Assembly: GCA_051294375.1 (NCBI GenBank)
Contig: CM119263.1
Location: 2,488,182 to 2,552,181, forward strand
DNA from: Paraspadella gotoi
Lineage: Eukaryota > Animalia > Chaetognatha
DNA: 64,000 nucleotides
Reading direction: 5' to 3'
Shown here: positions 12,966 through 55,000 of the stretch, in pieces
Position numbering within the stretch: position 1 is the stretch's first letter
Layout: each line of letters starts with the position of its first letter
Notes under the pieces: generated by a model
Told to the model about the DNA's origin: nothing
What the model saw: only the letters and a program-made list of their open reading frames with translations
Databases searched by the model: none
Made by a program: the position numbers and the translations under genes

Positions 12966-13268
12966 CGAGAATTAACATTCAATTCATACAAACGCGAGAT
13001 TTGAATTGGATTTTGTATTGAGGTTATTATTAATGAATTAAGCAGTCATTCAATCAAACAGTCAGTCAGTCAATCACTTAATTCATCCTTCGATCAATCA
13101 ATCCATCCATCCGTCAATAATTGATTCAATAAATAGAAAGTAAACATGTATTTTTAAAAAAAGGTCATTATTTTTATGATTGTTTTCAACTTCAGAAATC
13201 ACCTCTACTCACCTAACCTCGCCGCTGGCGTCCCCGGTCGTCTCCAGCAGTCGTCGACTTCGGCAAAG

Positions 13269-13347
13269 ATGGCGGAATTGGACGCGGACGAAATCACGAC
13301 GGCCAAAGTGGAGGAGTTCATCCTAAGTGTCTCGACTTCTTCCTAAG
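13269..13347 (+). CDS. ADA-like domain exon 1 (MAELDADEITTAKVEEFILKVSRLLPK)
   Basis: ATG at 13269 and donor CCTAAG|GT at 13348. It ends in 'LPK', which typically precedes VELH in ADA-family proteins. The clean 81-nt version is at 82-162; this copy lacks 2 nt. Confidence 0.7.
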
Positions 13348-16300
13348 GTTCTTGACCGAATGATTGATTGATTGATTGGGTCAAGTGACTTGCTTAATGG
13401 ATTACGAATTATTAATTGATTGGTGATAAATTTATTGTTTTGATTGCCAGCATCAACATAAATAGATAGTTGGATTGCTTTATGAAATTAATATATTTCT
13501 AGTGACCGACTACTAATAGATTAAACGGTGGCTGCAATCATTCGATTTATTGATTGATAGATCAGAGAGTTTTTATTGATTTATTTTGACCGATTTACAA
13601 TCGCTAATCGTTTATAATGATTCGATTTGATCGATGGAAAGATTTGAATGATTGATTGATTGGATCGATCCATCTCGATCGCCATCTTTCCAGGTCGAAC
13701 TCCACTGTCGCCTCGAAGGATGCGTCCGACCCAAGACCATCTGGGATTTGGCGCAGGAGAAACGAATTCCGCTTCCGAGACAAACGGAGAAGAATTCATC
13801 GAGTTTTGCGGAGTCGCGAAAGCGAACGAACCTCCGCTCGATCTTAACCAGTGGCTCAAGAACATCTCCTGCACGGTAGATGGAGGGGTGGAGGAAGGGG
13901 GTGGTCGAGCTGAATGGGGCGTGGGAGTGAAGGGGAAGGTGGATGGGAGCTGGCTGGAGTGAGGGGGGCAATGCAGGGCTGGGAACATGTGACAAGCTGC
14001 AATATCAAGTAAATAGAACCGATCATTACGTGAGAAGCTCCCAAATCAAATAATAGAACCAATCGAACTGTGACGAATTCCCAAATCAAGTAAATAGAAC
14101 CAATCGTTATTTGGGATGCTCCCAATTAAATAAACAGAACCAATCAAAGTGTGACAAGCTCCACAAATCAAGTAATAGAACCAATCAAAACGTGACAAGC
14201 TCTCCAATCAAGTAACTAGAACCAATCTAAATTCAGGTTCCCATCGTCAAGCTCTACTTCCACGTGTGTCGCGGCGACGCGGCCGCCATCAAGCGGACGG
14301 CGATGGAAATGCTCGAGGACAAAGCGAACGAGGGCGTCATCTATGTAGAAGTTCGTTACCCGCCGGGGATGATGGCGGGTGAGAAAATGATAGCTATCTA
14401 AATATCCATCTATCCATCCTTGACTCTTTCTCTCGAAACAAGCCCATGGTCTGACGATAATATCCATAATTATCCATATATTATCTATTAATCCATCCAT
14501 AACTCACTTTAAACAGGCCGGGCCTAGATATCTATCTTACTATCTTACTATCCATCCCTTACTCTCTCTAAACAAGACCCGCGATATCTAGTAAGGCGCA
14601 ACAGGTTACAAACTAACAGAAGTCCGTTATAAATATTGTTAATGTTGAGGCTACTTACCACAATGTGTTTATTAAAGATCGCTGAAAAAAAATATAATTT
14701 AAGATTTATCTTATAGTTAAACGCATGAACATTTTTATGATTCTATAGTAACGCATGAAGCTATTTTATATTTTCCGAATACAATGTAATGTCAAAATTT
14801 TTTAAAATAAATTTTAATTTTTTTAAAACGGATTCTGATAGAGCTTGAAAAGTTAGACGAAGGTTATTAATACAACTTTTAGAAATTTTAATGATTTATT
14901 TATAAAAATTAACAAAAACTATAAAATTTAATGAATGATGATGATATTGATGATAATGATAACGTTTTAAGGTTTTTTCAAATTTTAGCCCATTTATAAT
15001 TAAAAATTTTGAAATTTGTAGTTCTAACCTTTATCTATAAAAATTTAAATTTCTTAAAAATTTTTCTAAACATTTCTTATATATTGTTAAATATTAAAAT
15101 GCTTCCATGCATGAGGAAATTTAATTTAATAAAATTAAAAATCAAACATAAGTAAATTTGGTTGTAAAAGGAAATATTGTAAAAAATTTAAATTTTGCCC
15201 GCCTTAATATCCTGTATCTATGCAGCTCTCTATCCAACCATGAAACCCTCTCACTCTCAATCAGGCCCGGGACTGACCATGGAGCAAGTGGCCCTCGCCG
15301 TGCAGGACGGATTCAACGTTCTCTCCAAGCAAAGAGGCGACACCATCACTGGCAGATCGATTCTCGTTATCGACCGCGAGAGGCCGCAGGAAGCGGACGC
15401 CATTGTGGAGATAGCGAAGAGGTAGGGGGGAAAGGAGAAGGAGAAAATGGAGGGAGAAGGGGAAGAGAAAAGATGAAGGGAGAAGGGCGGAAGAGGAAAG
15501 GGTTAGGGAGGGGGGAAGTAGAAAGGNNNNNNNNNNNNNNNNNNNNNNNNNGTAGGAAGAAGGTGGAAGAGAAAAGATGAAGGGAGAAGGGGAAGAAGAA
15601 GGGAAGAGAAAGGTGGACTGAGATATTGTTAGTCACGTTAGACTTAATATGAATTCACCGAGGAAATTTTGTGAATGGAATCGCAGGCTTAAGTCGAAAG
15701 GCGTCGTGGGCATCGCGCTCAGCGGAGACGAAAACACGATTCACGAAAACAACCCGACTCACGCGGCCATCGCTAAGGCCTTTGAAGTGAGTCTTCTGTG
15801 TCATTGTTTATTCACGTCGGCCTTTAGGAGTGATCTTTGCTGACATTCGCAATTGCGACAATTTTCACAGTGTTACCCGCCGTCGCTCAAGATTTTGAAA
15901 AGATTAGACTAGCGGTTGCCGACCAAATTCAAATTTTAATGGGAACAGCATTAAACTAATCCATTATTGGTATTAATTATTGTGTTAAAATATTTTTTTG
16001 CAAAAATGTTCCAAACCATGAGTAATTCGCTAATTAATATTATTATATCGCTAAATAATGTCAAAAATTTTTTTAGATATTTTAAAGTTTTAGATATTTT
16101 AAGTTTTTTTAATAGATTCTGATAGAGCTTAAAAAGTTAAGCAAAAAATATAATTACAATTTTTAAAATTTTGATGTTTTAATTTTATTAATTTTATTAA
16201 TTTTAACCCACTTATCATCAAAATATTGAAAAAACAATTATACTTTGTGCAGATAACTTTTCATAAGCTATTTGAATCTGCTTTTAAAAATAAAAAATTC

Positions 16301-16549
16301 AAAAAAAAATTTTTGACATTTCCTATCTATAAATAAATATTAAAAAAAATAATTACTAATGCTTCTTGCCATTTTAGAAAATTTTGCTCCATTGAAAGTT
16401 TTCTCAGAAATGTATAAAGTTTCATTTGGAAAGGTTCCCAATTCAAACTTCTGACCCACCCCATTGACGAAGTTTGGCTCTAATTAGACCATGGCAAGCA
16501 GTTGAAACTTGAAGTCGTCGTCGCTTTTGTGACATGTCCTTAATTGTCC

Positions 16550-16589
<40 letters not shown>

Positions 16590-19500
16590 AATTAAATTTC
16601 TATTATCATTTTTTTCACCCAGAAAGCGAAGAAACTTCGCCTTCACCGAACTGTGAACAACGGGCAAGGAGGTGAAGGATCGAGTTGGAACGTGAAGGAG
16701 GCGATCACTCGACTCAACGCAGAAAGAATCGGTCACGGATACAAGTTTTTTGAAGGCAAAGACTGGGGGGGCGGGGGGGGGTGAAAAGGGGAAGCTGGAT
16801 CGAAGTAGCGGAAAGGTGAACATTCGAAAGTTTAATTTAGAGGAAAACAAAGTTTTTAATTCTTAACAAATGAAATTATAAATTTAAAACAGTAACTTTT
16901 GCTCAATTTAAAATGAAATACGAGGCTGTTGTTGAAAGAAAAAAAATTGAGCTCTGACAACGGTGGACCGGGGTCCAATCCATTTTACGATTAATTCCTT
17001 TCGGGTTAAGCCGACTTTTCATCTTCCTTCCCCCCCCCCCCACAACCTCCTCAGGATCCTGAACTGATGCGACTGGCCAAGGACAAGGGCATCCACTTTG
17101 AGATCTGCCCCTACTCGTCTCTGCAGCGCCGCGCCGTCGACCCCAACTTGCCCTTGACCCAACACCCGCTCAAGACCCTCTTTGAGGGCGGCTTCAGCGT
17201 CTCCATCAATACCAGCGACCCGACGGTTACTCGCAAGGACATCAAGCACGAGTACATCCTAGCCTATGATCAGATGAGCATGACGTTGGATGAAATCTGC
17301 ACCACAATCCGTTTGGCGGCCAGAGCCTCGTTTCAGGTGAGTGGGCGTGGTCTTGGAGTTAAAATAGACTTTTAATATTTTATTTCTAACAGTATAATTT
17401 ATTTGGTTTAAAATAAACTAATAATAAAATCTTATATAAGGTGATAGATGTGAAAACTAAAAAAGTTTTTTAACTAAATTTAACCAAAACTTAATTCTTC
17501 TTCCAGGACGAGAGTCACCGCAACGCCCTCATCGAACGTATGGACGACACCATGTCCAACATCCGGGAGCGCGCCCGGCATTTTGTCCGCTTCCAGCGAG
17601 ACTACCAGGCCTTCTGGGGTCCGGACTTCCGGGTAACCAGTTTGAACATCTCCAACCGGGATGCATTTCCTCTCCACTCCCATCCCGACACTTCCGGTAT
17701 GGGCAACATTGTGGCCAAGAAGAAGCCAGGAGATAAGAAGGTAATTGAACCAGAGGAGAAGCCAATGCCGAACCAAGCACCCTGGGCTCTGAGGGAAATC
17801 GTAAAAGAGGAGGACGTTAAAAAAGGCGTGACGCCCGTGGAGGCGCCCAAAAACGTCATGGTGCCTGGGCTGGGAATGTCCCAGATGAGAATTCCTGTGC
17901 CAATTGTATTCGTGTGCGGCGGACCAGGGTCAGGAAAAGGCACTCAATGTCAACGCATCGTAGAAGAGTACGGCTTCACCCACCTTTCCTCGGGTGACCT
18001 ACTTAGAGAGGAAGTGGCCTCAGGGTCGGAAACAGGTCAGACGCTTCAAAAGATCATGCAGGATGGTGAGTTAGTCCCCTTGGAAACTGTCCTCACATTG
18101 ATCAAGGACAAGATGGTCGATTGCCTGAAGACATCGAAAGGTTTCTTGATTGACGGGTACCCGAGAGAGAGGGAGCAGGGAGTCAAGTTTGAAGCAATGA
18201 TTGGGCCTTGCAAATGCGTACTTTTTTTCGACGTTTCTGATGATGAAATGACGGAAAGGCTTTTAAAGCGAGCTGAGACTTCGGGAAGGGCTGATGACAA
18301 CTTAGAAACAATCAAGAAACGATTAGAAACGTTTCATGCGACTGTTGACCCAATTTGCGAGTATTATGCAAAGAAGAACAAATTGTATCAAATTGATGCT
18401 GACTCCCGTGGGCCTGACGAAATCTTTGAGGACACTAGGGCAAAGATGGACATCGTGATTGGGAAGGTAAAAGCCCCTCCGCCCAAAATAAAAGCTGATG
18501 TGTTTTTTGTCTGTGGAGGACCTGGTTCTGGAAAGGGAACGCAATGTGACAGAATCGTTAAGAATTACGGATTCACTCATATTTCATCTGGTGATTTGTT
18601 AAGAAATGAAGTCGCCTCCAATTCTCCAAAGGGAAAAGAGCTGAATGAACTGATGCAAGCAGGAAAACTCGTTCCGCTCGAAACGGTTCTCGGGCTCATC
18701 AGGTCTCAAATTGTCAAAAAGGCCAGAACATCCAAAGGTTTTCTTATTGATGGCTATCCAAGAGAAATCGCTCAGGGCATCAAATTCGAAGATCAAATTG
18801 CTAATGTCAAGGGTGTTCTGTATTTTGATGTCTCTGATGAGGAAATGACAAAGCGTTTGCTGAACAGAGGCAAGACCTCTGGCAGAGTTGACGATAACAT
18901 TGAAACAATTCAAAACAGATTGAGCACCTTTCATGCCTCAACAGAGCCTGTCTGTACTCATTACAAAAAGAAGGGGAAACTGAGAGTGATTGATGCAGAG
19001 CGTCCTCCCGAAGATGTTTTTTATGATGTGCAAGTTCAACTCAACAAGTTCCTCAAGCTTCCGCCTCCAGCCGCTCCAAGAATCGAGACTGACATCTTCT
19101 TTGTCTGTGGAGGTCCTGGTTCGGGAAAGGGAACTCAATGCGAGCAAATAGTCAAAGATTATGGCTATACCCATTTTGCAACGGGAGATTTGCTCCGCGC
19201 TGAGGTCGCCTCTGGATCTTCAAGGGGAAAAGAATTACGGGCCATAATGAAGGAGGGCAAGTTAGTGCCAATTGACACTGTCTTGGAATTGGTCAGAGAC
19301 GCGATGTTGTCAAAGAGGTCAACGTCCAAAGGTTTTTTGATTGATGGTTATCCAAGAGAAGTAGCGCAGGGTAAGCAGTTTGAAGACAAGGTCGGCGAAG
19401 TTAAGGGAGTGTTATTTTTTCAAGTGTCAGACGATGAAATGACCCAAAGATTATTAACTAGAGGAAGAATTACCGGCAGCAAGCACGATACGGAAGATTC

Positions 19501-22500
19501 TATTAGAAGTAGACTAGCAACGTTTCACGAAACTTCAGATTCAGTAAAGGAATTCTACAAAAAACAAGGAAAATTACATGTTATTAATAGTGAGCGTAGA
19601 GAAAATGAAATATTCAGAGATGTTGCTTTATCCTTGGACAAAATTTTGGGATTAAAGAAAGTTCGTTCTGATATATTTTTTGTTTGTGGTGGTCCCGGCT
19701 CAGGAAAAGGAACACAATGTGAAAAAATGGTAAGAGAATATGGCTTTACTCACTTGTCAACGGGGGATTTATTACGTGCAGAAGTTGAATCAGGATCTGC
19801 AAGAGGGAAACAACTCAATTCTTTGATGCAAGCTGGAAAACTTGTACCAATGGAAATTGTACTAAATCTCTTAGAAGAGGCAATGTTAGCAAAATTTAAA
19901 ACTTCTAAAGGATTTTTGATTGATGGTTATCCTCGCGAAGTGGAACAAGGAGTTGCTTTTGAAAAGCAAGTTGGAAAATGCAAAGGAGTATTGTACTTTG
20001 AGGTATCAGATTCAGTCATGATAAAGCGGCTATTGAATCGTGGTAAGACATCAGGGCGAGTTGATGATAACATTAGTACAATTCGCAAACGTCTACAAAC
20101 ATTTCATGATGCCACAACTCCAGTTTTTGAGCATTATGCAAATCAAGGAAAACTGCACACAATTAATGCTGAACGATCACCAGATGAAATTTTTCTTGAT
20201 GTTAAAAATGAAATAGAATGGATGCTAGGGGTTCGGCCAAATATTAAGGGAGACATTTATTTTGTCTGTGGGGGACCAGGTTCAGGGAAAGGTACACAAT
20301 GTGAAAAACTTGTAAAGAGATATGGATTAACACATCTTTCATCTGGAGATTTATTACGTGAAGCTGTTATGAGTGGATCTCCAATAGGTCAAGAACTTAG
20401 TGCTATTATGTCAGCTGGAAGGCTAGTTCCTTTAGAAACAGTATTGAAACTGATTCGTGATGCCATGATCGCTAAAGCGGCAACTTCAAAAGGATATTTA
20501 ATTGATGGTTACCCACGAGAAATAATACAAGGAATTAAATTTGAAAATCTCCTAAAACCATGTAAAGCAGTAATTTATTTTGAAGTTTCTGACAAAGAGA
20601 TGACATCGAGGTTACTCAATAGAGGTCAAAGCTCTGGAAGAGCTGATGACAATCAGGCAACCATTGCTAAAAGACTTGTTACATTTCATCGAACAACCAC
20701 GCCAGTAGTAAATCATTACAAGCATATAGGAAAGCTGATAGAAATTAATGCTGAAAAGCATCCAGATGATGTGTTTGAAGTGCTTAAAGCAGAAATGGAT
20801 GAATTAACAGGACTAAATGAAACAGCCCCGCCTGTAGAAATCTGGGACAGGATTAATAATGGTTACATGACGGTGAGTAGAAGGCATTATCTCAAAGTTA
20901 AAAAATTTTTTAAGAAAGATAAAACTTGGATTTTAGATAAAAATACCCTTAAACCAGTCGAAGTTACATGGAACCATTTCATGAAAATACGAAATGAATA
21001 CAGGCTATCTTCCCCTGAGCTTTCATGTAGACCAGGAGACAACACTTTGTTTGTAAATATTCCAGATAAAATAAATGGTACCAAAATGCGGGTGACTTGG
21101 GAAATGTGGCTTAAAGTTCGGAACCATATTGAAGTAGATATCTTTGATAAAATAAATCATTGTTGGATGGCAGTACCAAGAGATGATTATTTGAAGACAA
21201 AACATTATTATCAAACAGAACAAACATACATGTATGATAAAATAAATCAATGTGAAATGAAAGTTTCCTGGAAAAATTTTTGCATGGTTCGACACTTTTA
21301 TACTGATATGATTATTGATGCGCATCCAGGAGATAAAACATTGCATACAACTATTCATGATAAAGTCAATAACTGTCTCATGAGGGTTACTTGGGAAGAC
21401 TATCTAAAAGTAAAACATCATTATCTTCCTAAGCCAAACCTGGAAGGGAAACCCATTATATTTGTTTGCGGTGGACCTGGAAGTGGAAAAGGTACTCAAT
21501 GCGAGAAAATTGTAAAGAACTATGGATTTACTCATCTTTCCTCAGGAGATCTGTTAAGAGATGAAGTTGCTTCCGGTTCAAAAAGGGGGAAAGAGTTAAA
21601 TGCATTGATGCAATCAGGTCAGCTTGTTCCTTTAGAAGTGGTTTTAGAATTAATAAAAGATGCTATGATAGCTAAAAAAGATACTTCAACTGGATATTTA
21701 ATTGATGGCTACCCTCGCGAGGTGGCTCAGGGAAAAATGTTTGAGGACACTATAGGATATTGCAAGGGAGTGATATATTTTGATGTTTCTGACGATGAAA
21801 TGACCAAGAGGCTACTTCACAGAGGAAAAACCTCTGGCCGTGTTGATGACAATGAAGAAACCATTAAGAAAAGGTTACAAACCTTCCATGACGCAACTGC
21901 CCCTGTAACAAAGTATTATGCTGCCATTAACAAACTGTATACTATTAATGCTGAAAGGAATCCTGACGAAATTTATAAGGACGTTGTGAATGCTCTTGAT
22001 CAGATGATTTTGTCTGATTCAAAAGTTATCTTTGTAATTGGAGGTCCAGGATCTGGAAAAGGAACACAGTGCTCTAAATTACTCAAACGATATAATCTTT
22101 CACACCTTTCCTCAGGAGATTTGCTCAGGGAAGAGGTAGCAAGTGGATCAGATATTGGAAATACTGTTAAGGATATTATGAAAAGAGGAGAGCTGGTTCC
22201 CTTACAAACAATATTAACCCTAATAAAAGATGGCATGGTAAAAAGATCACTTAAAGGAAGCAAAGGTTTTTTAATTGATGGATATCCTCGTGAAGTCGCA
22301 CAGGGAGACAGTTTTGAAAGCATGATTAAGCCATGTGATAAATGCCTTTTTCTTCAAGTTTCAGATGAATCAATGACAAATCGCTTATTAGCAAGGGCAG
22401 CTATGAATAAACGATCTGATGAGAATGAAGAAACAGTTAAAAAGCGATTGAAAAGTTTCCATGGCATAATTCAACCAGTTGTTAACCATTACAAAGACAA

Positions 22501-25500
22501 AAGAAAACTGGTTGAAATAACTGCAGAAGGAAACATTGATGACATATTTTTAGCGATAACTAAGAATTTGGATAAAGTTTTTAAGCTGTCAAATCCACCT
22601 ACACAGATATGGGATCGAGTCAATAATTGTTTTATGACCGTACCCTATGATGTGTATAAAAATGTAAAACATTTTTATAAAAGAGATACTACTTATATCT
22701 ATGATCGTGTCAATAAATGTGGCATGGAGGTCACATGGGATCAGTACATGAAAGTAAGACATCTTTATGCTGATTCAAAATTAGAAGTTTCACCAAGACC
22801 AGGAGACGAAACTATATATGTTGTAGCCTTTGATCATGTTAATAAAGCTAAAACAAGGATGTCATGGGAAAACTACCAAAAATTACTTGAATGGTTTAGT
22901 GTTAAAATTTGGGACAAAGTAAACCACACTTGGATGACTATACCAAGATCTGTTTACTATACAATCAAACATCATTATGAAGATAATACTACTTTTATGT
23001 ATGATAACATAAACAAGTGCCCAATGAGAGTTACTTGGAATAACTACCTTAAAGTAATGCATCATTTTGATGGTATGTTCCCAGAAATTTCTCCGAGACC
23101 AGGAGATGTAACACTTTATGTAAAAATTCCAGACGAAGACAACAAGAAAAAAATTAGAATGACCTGGGCAGATTACCAAATGATAAAAAGTCGTTTCTTT
23201 GTTGATATCTATGACAAAGTTAATGACTCTTGGATGACAGTTCCACGCAAGATTTATCTGACTGTAAAACACCATTATAAAAAAGATAAAACCTATATTC
23301 TTGATGAAGACTGTCCAAAATTGGTTTCGTGGTCCGATTATTGTAAAAACATGCATCATTTTGCAGACGTTACCCCCGAAATTTCACCAAAACCAGGTGA
23401 TGATACTTTGTATGTTCTTATTTATGATAGGGTAAACCAATGTAACATGAGGGTATCCTGGAATATTTATCAAACTGTCAAGCATTATTACAAGCCACCC
23501 CCATTAGAAGACAAAATAATAATTTTTGTTTGTGGAGGTCCTGGAAGTGGCAAAGGTACCCAGTGTGAGAGAATTGCACAAAAATATGGGTACACCCATC
23601 TGTCTTCCGGCGATTTACTTAGGGCAGAGGTAGCAAGTGGTTCAGCAAGAGGACAAAAACTTGCAGTAACCATGCAAGAGGGAAAGCTTGTTCCCTTAGA
23701 ATCTGTTTTGAGTCTCATAAAGGATGCAATGATACAGAAATTTGATGAATCAAATGGGTTTATAATAGATGGTTATCCAAGAGAAGTTGAACAAGGAAAA
23801 AAATTTGAAGATCAGCTTGCCCCTTGTAAAGCAGTTCTATTTTTCGATGTATCAGATGAAGAAATGAAAAATAGATTATTACAGCGAGGAAAAACCTCTG
23901 GGAGAGCTGACGACAATGAAAAAACCATAATGAAGAGAATAAGAACATTCCATGAAGTTTCAGAACCCGTGAATGAATATTATAAAGAAAGAAGAAAATT
24001 ATTTACTATAAATGCAGAAAGGCGACCAGGAACTGTATTCACAGATGTAGAACAAGTTTTAGACCAAATAACACTCGAGAAAACTAAAGTATTATTCATT
24101 ATTGGAGGACCAGGAGCTGGTAAAGGTACACAATGCAAAAAATTATCTAATGAATTTAATCTTTCTCAAATGTCGTCTGGGGATCTTCTACGAACTGAAG
24201 TTGACTCTGGTTCACATCTTGGAACAGCTTTGAATGATATCATGGGAGTTCGTGAGCCAGTGGCAGTTGAAACTGTACTTAGGTTATTAAAACTAAAAAT
24301 GGTCAATGAAGCCTTAAACGGAAGTCGTGGATTCTTAATTAATGGCTTTCCACGAACAGTGAAACAAGGAGAAATGTTTGAAAAAATAATAAAACCAGCA
24401 GACACTTGTATTTATTTTAATGTTTCAGACAAAACAATGTCTGACCGATTAAAGCAAAACGCTAAAAATCAAGGAATTGAACTTGATGATGATACTATTC
24501 AAGCCAAATTAGAAAATTTTCATAAAACTTCACATCCTGTATATGTCCAGAATCGTGCAAAAGGTAAAATGATTGAAATAAAAGCAGAAGGAGATGTTGA
24601 TTCGATTTTCAAAGAAACAAGAGCACGAGTTCAACTTGTAATGAGTCCAACACCACCAGATCTTTCGAAAAAGCCCATAATTTTTGTGTGTGGCGGGCCA
24701 GGAAGTGGTAAAGGCACACAATGTAATAAAATTGTTGAAAAATATGGTTTTACTCATCTCTCCTCTGGAGACCTGTTACGGGAAGAAATTGCCTCAGGAT
24801 CGGTCAGAGGTAAACAGTTAAATGAAATGATGGTAAATGGAGAATTGGTACCATTAAAGATAGTGCTGACATTAATAAAGGAAGCAATGATTGCTAAAGC
24901 TCATACATCCAAAGGTTATTTGATTGATGGGTATCCTCGTGAAGTAGAGCAGGGAAAGCAGTTTGACTCATCCATTGCACCGTGTACAGCCGTTTTATAT
25001 TTCGAAGTTTCCCGTGGAGAAATGACCAAACGTTTGATGAACCGTGGAAAAACTTCCGGAAGAGTTGACGATAATGCTGAAACCATCAAAAAACGACTGG
25101 AAACTTTTTATACTGTAACAACTCCAGTAACCGAATATTATAATTCTATCGGAAAGCTTTTTACTATTAATGCTGAGCGTACGCCAGATGCCATCTTTAA
25201 TGATGTAGAAGATGCATTGGATAAAACAGTTTTAAAAGTCCCAAAAGTTCTTTTCATTGTTGGAGGACCAGGCAGCGGAAAAGGAACACAATGCGAAAAA
25301 CTGGTCTCTTCCTTTGGTCTCACTCATTTATCATCAGGAGATCTGTTGCGTGAAGAGGTTGCCTCAGGGTCAAAATTAGGTAAAGATTTGGATAAAATTA
25401 TGAAAAAAGGAGAACTTGTACCTTTGGAAACCGTGTTGTCTATTCTCAAGGCTGCTATGGTTAAAGCAGCTTTAAAAGGAAGCAAAGGGTTTTTGATCGA

Positions 25501-28500
25501 TGGGTACCCCAGGGAAATTCGACAGGGTACGCTCTTTGAAAGTATGATAAAACCCTGTAGTGGAGTAGTTTACTTCAAAGTTTCTGACAAAGCAATGACA
25601 GAAAGGTTGTTGAAAAGAGCCAAGACAAGTGGCAGAGTTGATGATAACAAAGAAACTATTAAAAATCGTCTTGCCATCTTTCATCAATCAACGCAACCAG
25701 TTGTTGGGCACTATAAAGCTAAAAGAATGCTTGTTGAAATTAATGCGGAAGGAGATATTTATGATATCGCAAATGAGTCATTGACCAAAGTAGATAAAAT
25801 ATTTCATCCACCGCCAGTTGACATTTATGACAAGATTAACAGAAGCTGGATGACAATACCTCGAAAAAATTACCTCAAAGTTAAACATTACTACGATAAT
25901 GATTATACATTTATACACGATAAGGTTAATGATTGCCCAATGAGGATATCATGGTATAACTTTTGTAAAGTTAAACATTATTATACAGAGAATGATATAA
26001 AAATCTCCCCACGGCCGGGAGATAAAACACTTTACGTTGAAATTTATGATAGAATTAACGTTGGATACATGAGGGTTTCGTGGGACGTTTACCAAAGCGT
26101 TAAACATTATTACGACCCGCCAAATCTCAAAGAGAAGATCATAGTTTTCGTTTGCGGTGGCCCAGGCAGCGGAAAAGGAACACAATGCGAAAAGATCGTC
26201 AAGAAATACGGTTTCACTCATTTATCATCCGGAGATCTTCTTCGGGACGAAGTCGCATCCGGGTCTTTGAGAGGTGCCGAAATTAAGAAACTGATGAAAT
26301 CCGGGAAACTAGTTCCCCTGGAAACGGTTTTGACTTTGGTCAAGGACGCGATGATCGATAAAGGACATTTGACCAACGGATTCCTGATCGACGGATATCC
26401 TAGAGAAATAGAACAAGGAAAACAGTTCGAAGAAATGATCGCTCCTTGCAGAGCCATCATTTATTTCGAAGTTTCCGACAAGGAAATGACCAAGAGATTG
26501 TTGAACAGAGGAAAATCGTCCGGCCGAGTCGACGATAACGAGAGAACTATCAAGAAAAGATTAGCCACTTTCCACGAAGCCACTAAACCAGTGGTGAGTC
26601 ACTACGAGGATCAAGGAAAACTGGTCGCCATCAACGCAGAGAGAACCCCCGACGAAATTTTCAAAGACGTCTCGAAAAATATAGATAAGATAATCTTGCA
26701 CGATCCGAAAGTGTTGTTCATCGTCGGAGGCCCCGGATGTGGTAAAGGAACTCAATGCGAAATGTTGGTCAAGAAATTCGGATTGACTCATCTCTCATCC
26801 GGGGATTTGTTGAGAGAAGCCGTCGCCTCGAAATCCCCGATCGGTCAACAATTGGACGAAGCGATGAAGAGAGGAGAATTAGTTTCACTCGCCGTCGTAC
26901 TCGAGCTGATCAAGGAAGCGATGATCAGAGCCGCGTTCAAAGGCAGCAAAGGATTTCTCATCGATGGATATCCGAGAGAGATAGAACAAGGAAAGAAATT
27001 CGAGGAGGGCATCAAACCTTGCGACAAATGTCTCTATTTCAACGTCTCCGATCGAACCATGACGTCCAGGCTCCTCAAACGGGCGAGGACGAGCGGCAGA
27101 GTCGACGACAACGCGGAAACGATCGAAAAACGTTTGGTCACTTTTCACAAATCGACTCAACCCGTCGTCTCTCATTATCAGAGAAAAGAGAAACTCGCGG
27201 AAATTCCGGCGGAAGGAAGTAAAGAGGACATTTTCGCCTCGGCCTGTAAATACGTCGAGATGGTTTTCAAACCGCATTTAGATTTAAGAACGAAACGCAT
27301 CATCTTCGTCTGCGGCGGACCCGGCAGCGGGAAAGGAACTCAATGCGAGAAGATCGTAGCCAATTACGGATTCACTCACCTCTCTTCTGGCGACCTCTTG
27401 AGACACGAGGTCGCCTCGGGCTCCTTGATCGGGAGAGAGTTGAACGCGATGATGAAAGAGGGAAAGCTCGTTCCCATGGAAACCGTTTTGAAGCTGTTGA
27501 AGGACGCCATGTTGGCGAAATCGGAATTCGCCAACGGATTCCTCATCGACGGATATCCGCGAGAGATCGCGCAGGCGCAAAAGTTCGAGGAGATGGTCGC
27601 TCCTTGCAAAGGCGTCGTTTATTTCGAAGTCTCCGACGGTGAAATGACCAACAGGCTCTTGCAACGCGGGCAAAGCTCGGGTCGTGTGGACGATAACGAA
27701 GAGACCATCAAGAGCAGACTTGCCACATTCCATCAGGCGACGGCGCCGTTGACGACTCATTATAACAAACAAGGAAAGTTATTCAAGGTCAACGCGGAGA
27801 CGACGCCCGACGAGATATTCGATGACGTCCAGAAGGCAGTAGACAAGATCATTCTCAGCGATTGCAAAGTACTCTTCGTTGTTGGCGGGCCGGGCAGCGG
27901 GAAAGGCGAGTAGATGGATGAATGAGTTAGGGTTAAGAGTGATGGATTTGAGTATAAGGGACCATTAAGTAATAGAGTGATGTGAAAATAATATAACATA
28001 TAGAATATAAAAATAAAAAACCAATAAAAATACTTTAATAATTTTATTGTTTTAATTTTATATATTAGTAAGCACTAGTGAGCTATATTTACATATAATA
28101 AATATATAATAAACTAAAATTTCAAAATACAAATTTTTAAATTTTAGGATTGGATTTGAATTCCTAACAAAAAGTTAGTATAAGAAAGTATAATTCTTTT
28201 TTAAAAATTCTTACATTAAGTTAGTCAAAAAACTTAAAAAAAGAAGAAAAGAAAAAAGAGAGGAAGACAAAGATATTTTATGTACATCTTATTCATTTTC
28301 CAATCCATTATATTAAATACAAGGCTGCTCAAATCCTTTTCAAATGACCTAATTTTACACATGCCATTTAAAAAAAAAGGAACCCAATGCAAGCGGCTCA
28401 AGCGAGACTTCAACCTCGCTCACATCTCCTCCGGCGACCTCTTGCGAGACGAAGTCGCTTCCGGATCGCAGATGGGCAAATCCTTGGCCGTCATCATGAA

Positions 28501-28906
28501 GAAGGGCGACCTTGTTCCCTTGGAAACCGTCCTGACCCTGATCCGCAAGGCGATGGTCAAAGCGGCCCTGAGCGGTTACAAGGGCTTCCTCATCGACGGA
28601 TATCCGCGCGAGGTGAAGCAGGGCGCCATGTTCGAGTCGATGATCAAACCGTGCGACGGATGCCTCTACTTCAACGTCTCCGACGAAACGATGGTGGAGA
28701 GACTGTTGAGCCGCGGCGTGTCCAGCGGAAGAGCAGACGACAAGGAGGAAACCATCAAGAAGCGTTTGGTGACCTTCCACGATTTGACGGAACCAGTCAT
28801 CGAGTATTACAAGCAGAAGGATAAGATCATTGAAGTCATTGCGGAAGGAGACGTGGATGAGATCTATGCCGACGCGATCGAAGGTTTATTACCCATTTTC
28901 GACTGA
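13269..28906 (+). CDS. Giant ~4000-aa fusion protein: ADA-like pseudoenzyme domain + 15 tandem adenylate kinase domains + 6 copies of a ~98-aa repeat (spliced gene, 9 coding exons)
   Basis: Manual splicing gives exons 13269-13347, 13694-13875, 14237-14378, 15265-15421, 15687-15786, 16623-16754, 17055-17336, 17507-27905 and 28380-28906. Phases match at all junctions except 6/7, which is ambiguous by 1 nt. Exons 1 and 2 carry 2-nt and 1-nt deletions that are absent from the duplicate at 82-162 and 513-640. Exon 8 begins GAC GAG AGT CAC (DESHRNALIER), in frame with the 3457-aa ORF at 17540. Confidence 0.82.
13694..13875 (+). CDS. ADA-like domain exon 2 (VELHCRLEGCVRPKTIWDLAQEKRIPLP...WLKNISCT)
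   Basis: ttccag| acceptor and ACG|GTAG donor. Matches human ADA [28 protein letters not shown]. It has a 1-nt deletion relative to the copy at 513-640. Confidence 0.8.
14004..14230 (+). repeat. ~40-nt minisatellite in ADA intron 2
   Basis: About 6 degenerate units of caaatcaagtaaatagaaccaatc(g/a)aa..gtgac.agctc. Related sequence at about 860-1100 and 2192-2275. Confidence 0.75.
14237..14378 (+). CDS. ADA-like domain exon 3 (VPIVKLYFHVCRGDAAAIKRTAMEMLEDKANEGVIYVEVRYPPGMMA)
   Basis: ttcag| acceptor and G|GTGAG donor. Matches ADA [36 protein letters not shown]. Confidence 0.88.
15265..15421 (+). CDS. ADA-like domain exon 4 (GPGLTMEQVALAVQDGFNVLSKQRGDTITGRSILVIDRERPQEADAIVEIAKR)
   Basis: tcag| acceptor and AG|GTAGG donor, phase 1 to 2. 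Matches ADA LTPDEVVALVGQGL...ARSILCCMRHQP. Confidence 0.85.
15687..15786 (+). CDS. ADA-like domain exon 5 (LKSKGVVGIALSGDENTIHENNPTHAAIAKAFE)
   Basis: cgcag| acceptor and GAA|GTGAGT donor. Matches ADA VVAIDLAGDE...HVQAYQ. Confidence 0.85.
15920..16468 (+). mobile_element. Foldback/MITE-like dispersed repeat, copy 1
   Basis: Colinear with 50334-51087 (gaccaaattcaaattttaatgggaacag...aacttctgacccaccc). It has imperfect internal inverted symmetry, for example tgtcaaaaattttt / aaaaatttttgaca and gattctgatagagctt / aagctatttgaatc. Confidence 0.65.
16623..16754 (+). CDS. ADA-like domain exon 6 (KAKKLRLHRTVNNGQGGEGSSWNVKEAITRLNAERIGHGYKFFE)
   Basis: cccag| acceptor. Matches ADA IHRTVHAGE...VKEAVDILKTERLGHGY. 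The donor is uncertain: GAAG|GCAAAG is one base out of phase with the next exon. Confidence 0.85.
17055..17336 (+). CDS. ADA-like domain exon 7 (DPELMRLAKDKGIHFEICPYSS...SINTSDPT...AARASFQ)
   Basis: ctcag| acceptor and CAG|GTGAGT donor. Matches ADA HFEICPWSS...YSLNTDDP...AAKSSFL. Confidence 0.9.
17507..27905 (+). CDS. Giant 10.4-kb exon: end of ADA fold, linker, AK domains 1-14, start of AK15, and three repeat blocks
   Basis: Uninterrupted 3457-aa ORF. GGPG[S/A/C]GKG P-loops start at about 17918, 18515, 19109, 19688, 20270, 21470, 22040, 23534, 24104, 24692, 25262, 26156, 26726, 27314 and 27884. Most domains also have HLSSGDLLR, GxLVP, FLIDGYPRE and the short LID RxxxSGRxDDN of AK1/UMP-CMP-kinase type. 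Confidence 0.95.
20834..21424 (+). repeat. Coding repeat block 1: two ~98-aa units between AK5 and AK6
   Basis: Units begin VEIWDRINNGYMTV and VDIFDKINHCWMAV. Each has three IxDxxNxxxMxVxWxxYxxVKHxY sub-repeats and an (R/H)PGDxTL linker. Confidence 0.9.
22601..23491 (+). repeat. Coding repeat block 2: three ~98-aa units between AK7 and AK8
   Basis: Units begin TQIWDRVNNCF, VKIWDKVNHTW and VDIYDKVNDSW. Each contains SP(R/K)PGDxT(I/L)YV. Confidence 0.9.
25817..26113 (+). repeat. Coding repeat block 3: one ~98-aa unit between AK11 and AK12
   Basis: VDIYDKINRSWMTIPRKNYLKVKHYY...SPRPGDKTLYVEIYDRINVGYMRVSWDVYQSVKHYY. Confidence 0.9.
28380..28906 (+). CDS. Terminal exon completing AK domain 15 (G|TQCKRLKRDFNLAHISSGDLLR...EGLLPIFD*)
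   Basis: Joins to GGPGSGK G| through the GC donor AAAG|GCGAGT at 27906 and the acceptor AAAAAAAAAG| at 28379, restoring GKGTQC. AATAAA at about 28987. Confidence 0.9.
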
Positions 28907-46000: not shown

Positions 46001-49000
46001 ATGAAAACTTTAGTTTTAATTTACTAATAAGATCCCTTAATTTTTTAATTCACTTCTGTTTCTAATGATCAACAAATTTAATTTACAGTTTAATGAAAAG
46101 AATTCCCAGTGCATAATTAAATTAGGGATGTCCTATATCGCATTTTAAGAATTGAAACACCTTTAAATAATACTGCCACAGAGCTCAAGTATGAATGAAG
46201 TAAACTTTTTTAATAATTTCTTTAATTGTAATGGCCATACATGCTCTTGATTCAAAGTTCGAGTTTTGAAGTTCAGAAGTTCAGAAATAAAATCATTAAA
46301 AATAGCATGTATATGGGTATCCAATATTTGAAAATCTAAGACAAATAACATCAATGGGTTAGGGGTTAGAAAAGGGCATAAGAAATTGTTTTATAAAGAA
46401 TTTTAAAAACTCAATGAATATATTAAAAAAAAAATAGGAACATAAGGTATAAATTATGAAAAATAAAATTAGTTAAAAATAGTAATAAAAATTATCTTAT
46501 CTATATAAATAGTTTTAAATACATTAAAGTATATATTAGAAATAATTAAAAATGAACCTCTATGTATAAGCTTTTTTGATTAAATTTTGTGTACAATAGA
46601 AGTTTTTAAACAATTTCATTATAGGGTATAAAAAATCGACTGAACAACCAAGTAAGGTAAACTGGATGCAAAAAAATTTCCAGAAATGCTCTAGCAGTTT
46701 TTTTTGGAAAATTCAAATGAGAAAGTAAGAAAGAGAATATGTATCAATACCCTTGAATATACTAATTTCAGACTTTTAAATGTTTTACATCTTCAGCACC
46801 AGCAAAGTTTTTATTGTCATACATAATATTTTGAGATTAAAAAATTAAGGTATTACTTTAAAACAATCTAATGATAATATATTCTTATATCTTATACTTA
46901 TACTGTATAAATACATCTGAGAAAAAACTCCTATGAAATGTACTGAAAAATTGAAATGACAACAAAGATCAGCAACAACTTACTTGCAATTACAAAAATA
47001 TTTTTGGTGTTTGTTACTATATTGAAATTAATATTAGCTAAAACACTCCAAAATTGTCAAGATGTTATCTCAACATCGTTAATAGTTAACTGCACAAAAG
47101 AAATAAAAGAATATTACATTCTCCCGAATGTTTTAAGAGGTGTATCTCATAATTATGATATAATAAATGTTTCTAAGTATGTTTCGAATTTGATTTCAAA
47201 ACAATGAAAAAATTTTAAATGATGATACCGACCAACGTCTTACTTAAGTAAAGATGACAGGGAATGGGGGTTATGGTTATGGGTACAGCAATCAAAAAAA
47301 AAAAATTAAATCAATGTCCAAAAAGAGGAAGATGCATGCAAATTATGTATAAAACAAAATTTTAAAGATTAGTTTTATTATATTAAATTTTTAAGTTTTA
47401 AATAAGTGCTTTTTCCCGTAGTCCAAAAATCTTTATAAATCAATGGAATGGACCTTGTAATGCGTTTGATCATTCACTTTTTTGATCATCTGACAATCAC
47501 AGGCAACTCCAGCCTAACGCTGACAAAGGGCCGACAGAGATAGAGGTCAACGGCCGATTAATTATTTTATTTTCAAGTTCTTGAGATATGTTGTAAAGAG
47601 TGAGATATCCCTAGACAATCTTGGCCTTTGACCCCTTGTTCCGTCGCTTTTGGTCAATGGTCAGAGGTAGACTGTCGTTTGTCCATTGGTCAATTCCGTT
47701 GATGAAATTTATTAAATAAAAGAAATTGCTTCAAATGTTAACAATGTAACATACTATTTCATTTTAATTAACTAATAAAATACAGAGATGAAAAAAACGC
47801 GCATAGTTCCTCAACCCTGATAATATGAAACTAACTACTCGAATCTACAGCAATTAGGCTGCTGCTGAGTTAGTCACAACTTCTTGCAAGGTTAGGCATA
47901 CTGAGTGTCTACAACACGCATGCATAAATACTAAATAGAGGGACTGAAAAAATAAAATCTTGAAAGTCAGAAAATATTCTCAAAATTAATAATTCTAACT
48001 TTCAAAATAGTCATATAACCATGGTTAGCACTGGATAAAATGTGAATAAACACTTTTGAGAAGATATTCACGTCAGAGTTGAACTATTTTACATTTTCGT
48101 TTTATTGTTTAATTTAAGCCAAGAGAGACAAGCCACTTGATAATCCATTCTGTGTTGCTAATAAAATGAAAAATATGTTTTCTTAAAACAAAATACATTA
48201 AAATAAATATTTCAAATAATATTTTTCATCAATTTTTACAAAAATCTATTTTAAGTAAGCTTAAAAAGGTGTTTATAAATATAATCAAATCTGACGTGAA
48301 TATTACTTCTAAGAAATTGCTGCCGCGAAAATACTAAAAAGGGCTATTGTGAAATTGTGAACAAAACAGTGGTAATGAAGGCAAATATGGAATAAGGCGC
48401 ATAATTGCTACAGTATCGCACAAAACTCTGCGACAATGAGCAATGAGAGAATTAAAAAAAAATAAATTGAATGAGGTCAAACTCACCTGCGTCTGGAGTC
48501 GAGTGAGGCCTCTGATCCAGAGGATCTGTCCGCGCTTGAGCTCCGGCGGAGTTGAAATGTCTTGTGGCATTTTCTCACTTCCTGTTTGAATCGGCTCCGG
48601 TTCTGGCTCAGGCTCCTCCACGAAAAATCTGGCCGGGATGACCTCATCCGGGACGCAATTCACCACCTGCAAAAAATATTACGATACTACAGATATAATA
48701 TAAAAATTTCTTTTCGTCACTGACCACAACAAAAGAAACGACAACGTTGATGACGACGACGACGACAATAACGCCGATAATAATTAATTGACGTATTAAT
48801 TAATTTATTGAATAATTAATTAATTAATGAAAAAATCGATTGATTGAATAATTGATTGATCCATCGCCTAATTAATTAATTATTGATTAATTGATTAATT
48901 AATACATCTTGCATTCACATTTAATATAAAAAGAAAATAAGGCTTAATAAATTAGTGAAACAGGTTTTTTGTTTTTTCCATTTAAACTCATTTCTACTCG

Positions 49001-52000
49001 GATGATTTCATCTAAACTTTTCCAATTTCAAGTCAATAGCCCCATACAATGAGGAATTGGCGTTTATACAGACTGACGGACGGACAGATGGAAATCAATT
49101 TTTTTGCATAATTGATTCGATAATAAAATCGTTGCAACAAAAACAACGATAATTAAGTGGTAATCAGCTAATCCGATGATATATAACGATAATTATTTCT
49201 GACTTTCAATTTATGATCTTACCAGACTTTTACAAATCATAACATAACAAACTATAACAGACTTCTTAATAAATCTATGAAAAAATCTCTAAATCAATTG
49301 ATCTCTCAATGATCCAGTAGCTGCGCCAATGACCAACTTGCATAATTTAGTCAACTTGCATAATTTATTCAACAGGCATAACTTGGTCAGCGGGCATAAT
49401 TTGGTGAACTTTCATAATTTGGTCAACTGGAATAATTTTTTCATATATTTTTCATAATTTTGCTAATAAACCATAAAGATTTCTCAATAAACTATAAAAA
49501 AATATATTATGGAGAATTAAAATCCACCAACCGTTCATCAGCGGCCATTGGTGCCGGAGGCAAGTCATTCGCCTCCCAACCCAAAGGTCCGGGGTTCTAG
49601 CCCGGTGGTCGCCTAGCAGTTAAGAGAGACGGGGCGCTTAACCCGCCTGTAACTCGGTGTTACAGCCTGATCCGAAGCTCAGGGACTGCTTATATTGAAC
49701 GGTTCTGTCACTAACACAACAATTATCACTGTCTCTTCAATATCAATAAATCAGTCCATCAACCTAAGAATTAGCTAATTAATGATTTTATTTGTAAGAG
49801 AGAGAAACTTAAAAAAAATTCAAATTTATGTGACTTTTGCTTTTTCCATTAAAACTCTTTTTTAACGATTCCATCGAAACATTAAAGCTAGCTTAATCAC
49901 AAACTTCTACCCACACAAAAAATTTTATTCCAATCCAACNNNNNNNNNNGAATCTGCTGATAAGCAGATCCGACTAAAAATTGGAGGGTAGAAAACGTAC
50001 CTGACCCCACAAAAGAACACCCAAGCCAAAGAAAACGCACCATAGCCAAATATCAGCAGTTAAAGAGTGTGTACTAAAGGCTCGTCCCCCAAATTCGATT
50101 ATGACAACCTTAAAAATAGTTTTTTTAAATAATTAAGTCATTATAATCATGAATTAATATTCGTACTCACTGTTTCTTCCAATTAACAATTGACAGATAT
50201 TTTCAAATTAGATAAACAAAATTCATATATTATATTTTTCTTTCTTATTTGCTTTTCTAGATGTGGATCAAGATACGTTCAATTTATGTAAATGAACTTT
50301 TTCCATGCTTTTTTCCTATAAAAAGCGATAACTGACCAAATTCAAATTTTAATGGGAACAGTATTAAACTAATCCATTATTGGTGATAATTATTGTGTTA
50401 AAATATTTTTTTGCAAAAATGTTCCGAACCAAGAGTAATTCGCTAATTAAAATTAAAATATATTATATAATGTTAAAATTTTTTTTATATATTAAGTTGT
50501 TTTAATTGATTCTGATAGAGCTCAAAAAGTTCAGCAAAAATTGTAAATACAACTTTTTAAAATTTTGATGTTTTACTACTGAAAATTAGTAGCGGAAAGA
50601 AACCGAAATTTTTGTTTTTACAACGATTTGTTTTTTTAATTAGGACAAGTTTTCATCAGCAATTATCAGTTTCAAAGTCGAAACATGTCCTAAATAAAAA
50701 ACAAATCGTTGTAGAAATAAAAAAATCGTTTTCTTTCCGCTAATAAATTCACACGGAACGAAAGGAAAATTAGTAAAAACTGCTAGTGCTAAAATTATCG
50801 GATGATGATGATGATGATTTTTCAAGGTTTTTCCTAATTTTAACCGCGTTATCATCAAAATATTGAAAAGAGAAATATACTTTGTGTAGACAATTTTTAA
50901 TAAGCTATCTGAATCTGCTTTTAAAAATACAAAATTTAAAAAAACAAATTTTAACATTTTTTATCTATAAATAAATATTAAAAAATTAATTACTAGTGCT
51001 TTTAGCCATTATAGAAAATTTTGGTCCATTGAAAGTTTTCTCAGAAATGTATGTTTCATTTGGGAACTTCTGACCCACCCAATTGACACTATCGAATTGT
51101 ACCTGCGAAAAAAGCGTTCCAAACCAAATGGTGTAAAAAATAGGATTTACAAAAACTCCTTGAAACACATTCCTTTGTCCGTGAATTTTTCTGGAATAAA
51201 TTTTAAGAAATTTAATTTTTATTGAGTCAAATCTTTTTAGAGAAATAAAGGATTTCAAATGACTAACATGTTACCTTGCATTTATTTCATTAAATAAAGT
51301 CATCATAACAAAAACGTTGAAAACAATAGTAAAATGAACTGAGGGTGGTGAACCTATTCTTGCTCCGATACCGCTGTCAATATCGAATATTGGAGAACCT
51401 GTAACAAAGTATTTCATTGCTGTAAGAAGTTACTTGAAAAAAATGTTAAAAGCAATTGTTGCGATTATAAGGAAGGAACTTTTGATGCAACCAGGAATGA
51501 GAATGAAAATTTTTTTCCGCTGATAACTAAGCGCTAAATACTAAATTTGAATAGGTACTTACCAAAATATAATATCACGAAAATAACCAGAAGCTGGTAG
51601 ACTGCATGTCCCAGAATATTTTTTAACATTGTTCTGGAAATTAAAGGTTTTGTTCTTCCATATGGTTTACGATCCAAAAGAGAATCATCTGGGTATTCCG
51701 TTGCAAGAGCTAATGATGCTAATGTATCCATTATTAGATTAACCCACAACATTTGTACTGCCCGCAAAGGCGAATCCTAAATATGAATCAGATATTTAAA
51801 AAAATAGTCAAAATGTAGTGAAAGTACAAATAAAACAATTAAATATGTTTACAAAATGCAAAAAGATTAAGAAATTGACTCCATTTTTTGAGAAAACCTT
51901 TTTAATTATGTAAATGAAATATATACCTTGATAGAAGCCGCTCCAATAAAAGCAACAATAACAGCAACAACATTCACAGTAAGTTGGAATTGCAAAAACT

Positions 52001-55000
52001 TAGCGACTGAATCATAAACATTTCTTCCCCATTTCACTGCCTGAAAAGCAATAAAGTAAGAAATAGTTTCAAAAAACTGTGGTGTTAAAAAATCATATCT
52101 ATAATTTTACTTTTGTAAGTGCATTAAGGTGGGCCAGACTGATATTTTTTACAATATGAAACGGTCTGCAATAAAAATCTTTTGTAGGAATATAAAGATT
52201 GTAATTTAAAAATAATAATTCGTTATTTTTATATGAGAAAATATGTTTTATAAATAAATTAAATGATTGTATTAATATAAAATTTTTTATTAAAAAAAAA
52301 TATGGCAATTGGAAAGATCGACGACGACTAAGAACTAAGTTGTCGTATTGAAAGGTTTTCGTAACAAAATCGTCGAAATGCCGAGAGCTTATTCTTACCT
52401 TGACTATCGATGAAAAATTATCATCTGTAAGAATAATGTCTGAAGCTTCTTTTGCAACGTCCGTCCCAGCAATACCCTACAAAGATTAAAATAAACAAAG
52501 AGGTGATAAATAATATATAAACGCATGATACGATTGATACAAACCATCGCAAATCCAACGTCGGCTTTTTTCAAAGCCGGTCCGTCATTAGTCCCGTCTC
52601 CCGTGACGGCAACGACTTCACGCATGGGAGTTATGCGGGAATTTATTATTCCTAAAAGTCAGACGAAGCAACGTTGTTAATATTTTATAGTTTATAAAAT
52701 ATATCTACGTGAATTACCTTTTACTAGAGTGTATTTGTCTTGAGGGGAAGAACGCGCAAGTACTCGCAAACGAGGCCAGATTTCATCGAGTTTAGCTGTG
52801 ACGCAAGACAAAACACTCAATTTTAATGCATTTTATAAACATGTACTAAAATTATGAAGTAACTAGAATTATTACCTTGTTCTACTTCATCTCTGTGATT
52901 TTTAATTAATCTATTAAATTCTTTTCCTTCCATGACGAGAAATTCAGAATTTGGGCTGAGAATACCACATTTTGTTGCAATCGACCGCGCAGTATTTATA
53001 TTATCACCGGTGACCATACGTACTACGATTCCAGCATGCTGGCACAATTCAATTGCTTTTGGAACCTGCAAAAAGTGGAAAATGACAGATTCAAAGTATA
53101 ATGTTGGATAAAATCAGATTTTTATGAAAATTTGCAAATTACTTGTTTCACTATTTTCTATTTTTCTATTTTAATATTTTAATTTTTTTAAAAAGGATTT
53201 AGTATTTAATCTATGAGTTGAGTTAAAAAGTTTAAGTTAAAATGAGAAGTAGGCTACTCACTACACAAGCTAGCAAACACAGACCTCTGGTCGCACTGGG
53301 TCCTCTATACCAGCAATCGCTATGAGGGTCATATCTTTGAAGATTGAGTCTTCATCATTCCAATCTGGTTCCTTAGCGACATGAACCTCATTTGACGCAT
53401 GATCGCCTAATTCAAATAATAAGTATAAAAAAATGGTCTCGGCAAATGTTTTTTTACAAAATCAAGAATTATACCAAAAACAAAATCTTTGTAAGCGATT
53501 CCGATAGTTCGCAGTCCATCCATAGCCATAGGTTCAATCACAGAAGTTACGAGCTTGGATGCGTCAGACGATGAAAATGGTTGAGGTTTTCCATCAATAT
53601 CCATCATAAATGCACATTTTTTTGTAATAACTGAAGATTAAAAAGTAAAATTTAATTATTGCATTATGTCCGCATTATGCAAGCTACACTTATGTCAATA
53701 ATATCAGCAACGCCATAAAAAGAATTTTCTTTATCCATCATAAAAATGTAAGAAAGGTCAAACCTTCCGAAGCCCCTTTCGTATAAACGCGAAAGCCATC
53801 TCCCCCTGGCCGAGCGATGACGGTGCTCATTGATTTTCGCGCCGAATTGAAGGTGAAAACTTTAATGAATTTGTCTTCAGTTGTTGCATCACGATATGAC
53901 TAAAAAAATGTAGTTATTAAAATTAAAATTTTATACTTTATAAAATTTGATTAATAAGGAAGCGATTCTGGCTACAAAACAAATACGACATCATTTTGTT
54001 TATTTATTTGTTTATTTAAAAAGTAGCGCTAGAATTATGTAAGAGCAATTGTATTAAATTCTCGTCTCGGCCCATATTTTTGGCATATATAATATATAAA
54101 TATTATATATACATATATTTTTTTTCAAAATTACCTGATAATCCCTGCCTAAAACTAACTGAACAAATCCAAGAAGCGCACATTCAGTTTTATTTCCCAG
54201 CTGAACCGGAAGAGCGCTCGGATCTTCTTTGTTAATTTGAATTTGAGTAGCGTAGGAACTAAGGATACAAAATAAGACAAAAAAAAATATATAAAATTGT
54301 CAAATAATGCGAGGACAAAATGTTTTTCTGACATCATAATTCAACAGAAAATCAACTGCTCAAAAATTTACCTGTTAATGCAAATGGATTGACAAATTAA
54401 ATCCCCAAAATCAACAGAAAATAAAGAATAACGCGGAGGATCTTCATTGTGTATAAATCGTTTTCCTGATGAAATAATGTTTATTTCAAGAAATGTTTAC
54501 AAATTCTCCTAAAATCTAACCAGTAAAAATAATACTCTTATACTATTCAAAGAAAAGAGAGTTTCTGGCCCAAAGAAAAAATCAGCCAAGTATTTCATAA
54601 AGGATTTAAAAGGAGGATTAGGTTTAAAGTTTAAAGATAACCAATTAACCATACCAGCGAAAAAACTAAGAGAAAACTGAAACATACCCCCGATGTAGCT
54701 TTGAACGCAGGTCATTCTGTTAGTTGTCAGCGTTCCTGTTTTATCTGAGCATATTGCTGTGGCATTTCCCATGGTTTCACAAGCGTCTAAATGGCGAACT
54801 AGGTTATTATCCTTCATCATTTTCTGAAAGCAGAAACGTTTATATACTGATATAAAATTGGGTCTTTTCAGCGTTACGTATTTTTTAATTCTCCATCTTT
54901 ACATTAATTTTTTCACCTCCCAACTTTAAAGTAAAGAAATCGAACGAAAAAAAATAATAAATTTTTGATTTTGCGTTGGTTTTCTATAAATTACTTAAAT

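Follow-up and report, generated by a model that had tools for sequence, protein, structure and literature searches.

Results

The 64,000-nucleotide stretch of DNA analysed here (the window) is AT-rich and of animal type, with introns, and carries on its forward strand a gene for a giant chain of adenylate kinase (AK) domains. By summed exon lengths the whole product has about 4,000 codons, encoding an adenosine deaminase (ADA)-fold domain followed by 15 AK1-type kinase domains, which we number AK1 to AK15 along the chain. Three of the linkers between kinase domains hold blocks of a repeat, which is the main subject of this report:

20831-21130 and 21131-21424, + strand: block 1, units 1 and 2 (six sub-repeats), between AK5 and AK6
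22598-22897, 22898-23197 and 23198-23491, + strand: block 2, units 3 to 5 (nine sub-repeats), between AK7 and AK8
25814-26113, + strand: block 3, unit 6 (three sub-repeats), between AK11 and AK12

The repeat within the giant kinase

A first-pass annotation of this DNA had described six units in blocks of two, three and one after AK5, AK7 and AK11, an arrangement that we recovered in full, and a profile of the sub-repeat found exactly the 18 copies it had counted, three per unit. The units are 98 to 102 residues long and 36 to 60% identical to one another (shuffled controls averaged 24%, with a maximum of 36%), while block 2 reached a profile score of 364 bits versus at most 9.5 for 500 shuffles. 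The proposed sub-repeat consensus largely stood: the 18 copies matched 6 to 14 of its 14 positions, versus no more than five in 2,759 other 27-residue segments of the same protein. Its (W/P) column needed correction, being W in 12 of 18 copies and R in five, with the proline sitting one place earlier. Within the conserved linker, given as SPRPGDxTLYV, PGDxT is invariant, while the exact SPRPGD was found in three of the six units only. The suggestion of a periodic arrangement did not hold, as the blocks of two, three and one units lie two and four kinase domains apart. AK6 to AK15 alternate between two subtypes, forming five A-B pairs, and each block occupies a linker ahead of such a pair; the equivalent B-to-A linkers at AK9-10 and AK13-14 have no insert.

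The units are neutral to basic (net charge 0 to +10) and rich in Trp, Tyr and His, with tryptophan at 3.6% versus 0% in the kinase domains and tyrosine at 8.4% versus 2.5%. Among 24 units compared, 14 columns were invariant, and these differed by module, as did the conserved surface-type residues (W12, P16 and R17; C41, P42 and W47; R87 and W90), which fit a specific interface. Judged from these alignments the repeat is under strong constraint, with conservation near that of the enzyme domains.

An AlphaFold model of unit 6, built from 25 alignment rows, was predicted with high confidence (pLDDT 90.2, pTM 0.77; four of the five models at 88 or above) and showed three strand-strand-helix modules, in agreement with the beta-hairpin plus helix expected from the sequence. 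In this model the PGD loop lies between the second and third modules and the invariant D-x-x-N is placed at the hairpin turn. The module-specific invariant columns would fit a single compact domain of three modules whose surface is conserved. The secondary structure of the model agrees with a beta-beta-alpha layout, and fold searches were undecided.

No named family was matched in Pfam, NCBIfam or the PDB sequences, as the first-pass annotation had anticipated. None of the six units matched a Pfam family at E <= 5, and whole blocks gave only E >= 0.04; the best NCBIfam match (E 0.018) was far under the curated cut-off. A weak profile match to the designed mkDPBB (double-psi beta-barrel/GD-box; E 1.7) was also obtained; the model shows three hairpin-helix modules. 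The beta-beta-alpha layout is reminiscent of zinc fingers, and C2H2 fingers and other small beta-beta-alpha modules likewise come as tandem hairpin-plus-helix modules of about 27 residues. Unlike C2H2 fingers, the repeat lacks the Cys-x2-4-Cys/His-x3-5-His ligand set, as no Cys or His column was invariant in the 24 units (best Cys column 20/24, best His column 18/24), and its three module types seem packed into one domain. Within the libraries searched, the repeat is by sequence an undescribed domain family.

Relatives of the giant kinase and of the repeat

A cluster look-up identified an orthologue, P0061, a 4,012-residue JGI protein with the same order as the window protein: ADA fold, 15 kinase domains, and 18 sub-repeats in blocks of two, three and one. 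At matching positions the repeat units of the two proteins were 56 to 70% identical and the kinase domains 64 to 85%. Each of the 14 window kinase domains compared grouped with its positional counterpart in P0061, while identity to non-matching P0061 domains was 39 to 72%. Six more kinase-fused unit 6 sequences were 59 to 65% identical to the window and 75 to 96% identical to each other.

Searches for the repeat returned five matches in 140 candidates, 13 in 2,123, and 24 at E <= 0.001 among 1.84 billion representatives. Nineteen long relatives (491 to 834 residues) carry the repeat without any P-loop. Sub-repeats were counted in two of these kinase-free proteins, P0004 (11) and P0026 (16), both of which chain partly in a two-module period where the PGD linker alternates with a short linker. 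The three-module unit is thus not the smallest repeat, kinase-free relatives using a two-module period as well. At its N-terminus the P0004 group also carries a helical stretch that is coiled-coil-like and shows a heptad pattern, while P0026 has no helical N-terminus. For the nine of 24 representatives whose sources were checked, records came from JGI, merc, ENA and Logan, with none from NCBI or UniRef. One further protein, P0052 (merc), is an acidic 572-residue repeat protein from a marine eukaryote. It matched the repeat at E 2.4e-5 in the 1.84 billion and with an hhalign probability of 56%, and its profile score was 30 bits versus at most 5.4 for 500 shuffles. P0052 shares in-register Y-D-x-x-(N/T)...(S/T)-W-x-x-Y modules with the repeat but is only about 20% identical, acidic and without the PGD linker; it is possibly a remote family member.

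The N-termini of the kinase-free proteins point to their origin. Three of the 19 (P0003, P0007, P0008) start with LSSFNLFK and four (P0002, P0004, P0015, P0057) with LFK, while the other 12 start at Met; neither start was found in any of 171 other proteins compared. By hand translation, LSSFNLFK is the in-frame product of the last 24 nucleotides of the chaetognath splice leader SL2.0, right after an in-frame stop (PMC2481426, Table 3). This comparison was made at the protein level and on the relatives only. Chaetognath splice leaders resemble none from other phyla, according to that paper (PMC2481426). The transcripts of the leader-bearing proteins therefore very likely come from arrow worms, and the repeat family likely belongs to that phylum. 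In Paraspadella gotoi about half of the genes are trans-spliced (PMC12460157). We infer the same assignment for P0061 and the window from the shared and narrowly distributed repeat.

Kinase domains, deaminase-fold domain and gene layout

The features of the host gene outside the repeat are as follows:

~13269-13347, 13694-13875 and 14237-14378, + strand: ADA-fold exons 1 to 3 (tblastn with P0061)
~15265-15421 and 15687-15786, + strand: ADA-fold exons 4 and 5 (tblastn with P0061)
16623-~16755 and 17055-17336, + strand: ADA-fold exons 6 and 7 (tblastn with P0061)
17507-27905, + strand: giant 10.4-kb exon with the last ADA helix, a linker, AK1 to AK14, the start of AK15 and the six repeat units
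17918-27905, + strand: 15 AK1-type short-lid domains; P-loops of AK1 to AK5 at 17918, 18515, 19109, 19688 and 20270
21470, 22040, 23534, 24104 and 24692, + strand: P-loops of AK6 to AK10
25262, 26156, 26726, 27314 and 27884, + strand: P-loops of AK11 to AK15
28380-28906, + strand: last exon with the rest of AK15 and the stop (Pfam ADK 1e-42)

In the PDB the kinase domains were closest to the muscle-type enzyme AK1 (E 1.2e-68, versus 1e-53 for the enzyme AK5). The P-loop (GxPGxGKGT) and (S/T)GDLLR were present in all 15 domains, and the DG(Y/F)PR-type motif was DGYPR in 14 and NGFPR in AK9. The full short-lid GRxDD motif was found in all 15 domains of P0061 and in 12 of the 15 in the window protein, which by sequence are those with complete motifs. 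The lids of AK3 and AK7 are changed, and AK9 (24104-24640) is degenerate, having lost the LVP and lid-arginine motifs that are intact in P0061.

Pfam A_deaminase matched exon 7 at 4e-16 and another window exon at 5e-5, while P0061 matched PF00962 at 9e-67 over profile positions 1-329 of 330. The domain is 33 to 38% identical to named ADAs and resembles the ADA1 family (PF00962) over the full length of the fold. It differs from that family in its fusion to kinases and in the replacement of four active-site residues. In a comparison with 31 other ADA-family proteins, HxH was changed to HCR, HAGE to NNGQ and DD to SD, replacing the second His, the third metal His, the catalytic Glu and the first Asp of the DD pair. 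P0061 has the same substitutions (HCR/HSR, NNGQ, SD), and the HIGHG-type His is retained. By established ADA chemistry the site thereby loses its catalytic Glu together with three ligands of the zinc, and the domain is therefore likely a pseudo-enzyme.

The gene is larger than the first-pass annotation had described, which left out the upstream deaminase-fold exons and the last exon. The giant exon lies in a stop-free open reading frame (17495-27913, + strand) of 3,472 residues with 15 P-loops. All seven upstream exons (13269..17336) were mapped with P0061 at 57 to 80% identity and run in frame into it, and the terminal kinase domain of the last exon is also found at the ends of P0061 and P0006. 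Contigs of X1, a DNA run from which the assembly may derive and which is hence not independent of the window sequence, span the giant exon; two letter differences but no indels are listed within it. From a different study, X6 (RNA by guess), contig 24 covers 26164-27906 and continues into the letters of the last exon; a second X6 contig covers unit 6.

GC splice donors were observed in two of the eight introns, one at 27906, before the last exon, and probably another at ~16756, and upstream of the last acceptor lies a stretch of A in place of pyrimidines. Indels or substitutions at ~13327, ~13779 and 16745-16747 break the ADA frame in the assembly. These breaks are likely assembly errors, as the duplicate copy or the X1 contigs read differently; those in exons 1 and 2 look like errors because the duplicate stays in frame. 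This duplicate, at 1-2159, is a noisy copy of 13191-15114 (83% identity, 259 gaps) that spans ADA exons 1 to 3, ends at an N gap and is itself likely an assembly artefact. The ADA intron at ~15900-16480 holds a high-copy interspersed repeat, with a further copy at 50334-51087. Along the giant exon, GC content at third codon positions runs from 0.65 through about 0.2 to 0.68, and the observed/expected CpG ratio is 0.56-0.59 mid-exon versus 1.33 at the 3' end. An internal MGNIVAKKK at 17699 resembles a myristoylation start; its Met is kept in P0074 and not in P0061. At ~48300-60050 on the minus strand lies a multi-exon gene with motifs such as DKTGTLT, which we take to be a P-type Ca-ATPase (PMCA-like).

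Discussion

The host protein resembles known anchored multi-domain adenylate kinases, while for the repeat domain the libraries searched contain no described relative. The host protein shares tandem kinase domains with a known single chain that is proposed to provide motors with ATP, and differs in having 15 of them, a pseudo-deaminase at its head and repeat blocks within the chain. In myofibrils, adenylate kinase molecules form linear arrays; FHL2 or Oda5p holds the enzyme in place, and a three-domain form is used in the flagella of sea urchins (PMC2680645). AK1 (myokinase), held by FHL2 in myofibrils or by Oda5p in axonemes (PMC2680645), has the same AK1-type catalytic domain and a proposed role in keeping the kinase beside ATPases, but its anchor is a separate protein, while the proposed anchor here is an unrelated module fused into the chain. 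As AK1-type kinases are known to be lined up on myofibrils and to be anchored, a built-in anchor is the most economical reading of the repeat, and anchoring comes first among the readings since kinase-free proteins are made from the repeat as well. The strong constraint on the units, their basic and W/Y/H-rich composition, their placement in linkers ahead of A-B pairs and the closeness of the kinases to muscle-type AK1 also speak for it.

We infer that the repeat is a binding module, and we consider it an even chance that it docks the 15-domain phosphotransfer chain onto a motor-bearing filament lattice. Through its predicted fold of three hairpin-plus-helix units it would serve as the built-in anchor, and the kinase string would regenerate ATP locally from the ADP that the motors release and pass phosphoryls down the filament. 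The deaminase fold, likely inactive, may sense AMP or adenosine or serve as an interaction head, and the kinase-free proteins may be structural parts of the same lattice, using the same binding site. A muscle filament is a tentative choice of host and a cilium or sperm filament a somewhat less probable one, docking on the myofibril being more likely than on the axoneme. The locomotor muscle of chaetognaths contains sarcomere types peculiar to the phylum (PMC2020476, PMC4254178), which makes lineage-specific filament proteins plausible, though it is no proof; kinases are not mentioned in the accessible part of a Spadella atlas preprint. The fullest version of the proposal is correspondingly tentative: an arrow-worm-own filament-binding repeat, with no described fold relative, would build lineage-specific sarcomere proteins and bolt a ~440-kDa wire of 15 adenylate kinases, headed by a pseudo-deaminase that senses nucleotides, along the myofibril as a single-polypeptide phosphotransfer relay.

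Several points weigh against docking. A molecular ruler would not be expected to have blocks of such irregular size and spacing; the chaetognath signal derives from the kinase-free transcripts rather than from the window or P0061; and the model of P0004 was poor (pLDDT 46.9, pTM 0.29). The composition of the repeat suits ligand binding or self-association equally well.

Self-association would have the repeats bind each other, the kinase-free proteins polymerising into their own scaffold with which the giant kinase co-assembles, without a host filament. The open-ended chaining of P0004 and P0026 with alternating linkers, the edge beta-hairpins predicted in the unit model and the long heptad-patterned N-terminal helices of the P0004 family agree with such an arrangement, but a single unit was modelled as compact on its own and P0026 lacks the helical N-terminus; we regard it as rather unlikely. 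We give similarly low credence to the repeat binding a small ligand or polymer (nucleotide, RNA, glycogen or chitin, or metal) as a sensor or tether to a fuel particle. Its modules are aromatic, His- and Cys-rich and basic, and they are fused to nucleotide enzymes and a likely ligand-binding pseudo-deaminase; yet the lack of any invariant Cys or His column makes a fixed metal site unlikely, and no carbohydrate- or RNA-binding family was matched in Pfam.

The first-pass annotation had offered an oligomerisation spacer as an alternative to an anchor. The location of the repeat in linkers, with none at AK9-10 and AK13-14, would suit a passive rigid spacer between kinase pairs, but conservation near that of enzymes and the existence of kinase-free proteins consisting mostly of repeat make this improbable. 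Noise in neighbouring parts of the window, namely the duplicate at 1-2159, might suggest that the array is an assembly artefact or a collapsed or expanded repeat. We consider this extremely improbable, given how far the kinase domains diverge from non-matching P0061 domains, DNA copies only ~65-70% alike, the X1 coverage of the exon and the layout shared with P0061, which contradicts an artefact.

Filament docking, if true, would fasten the kinase chain to filaments of muscle or flagella, an undescribed way to supply ATP to motors. In the phosphotransfer-relay idea linear adenylate kinase arrays pass phosphoryls along filaments, and loose monomers make it hard to test; a naturally occurring string of 15 AK1 domains that carries candidate anchors offers a ready test object, and its likely inactive deaminase head may in addition sense AMP or adenosine. 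The domain is Pfam-ready and serves as a marker for a group of proteins that are likely specific to chaetognaths, and these repeat proteins are candidates at the molecular level for what is unusual in the sarcomeres of an abundant, little-studied phylum.

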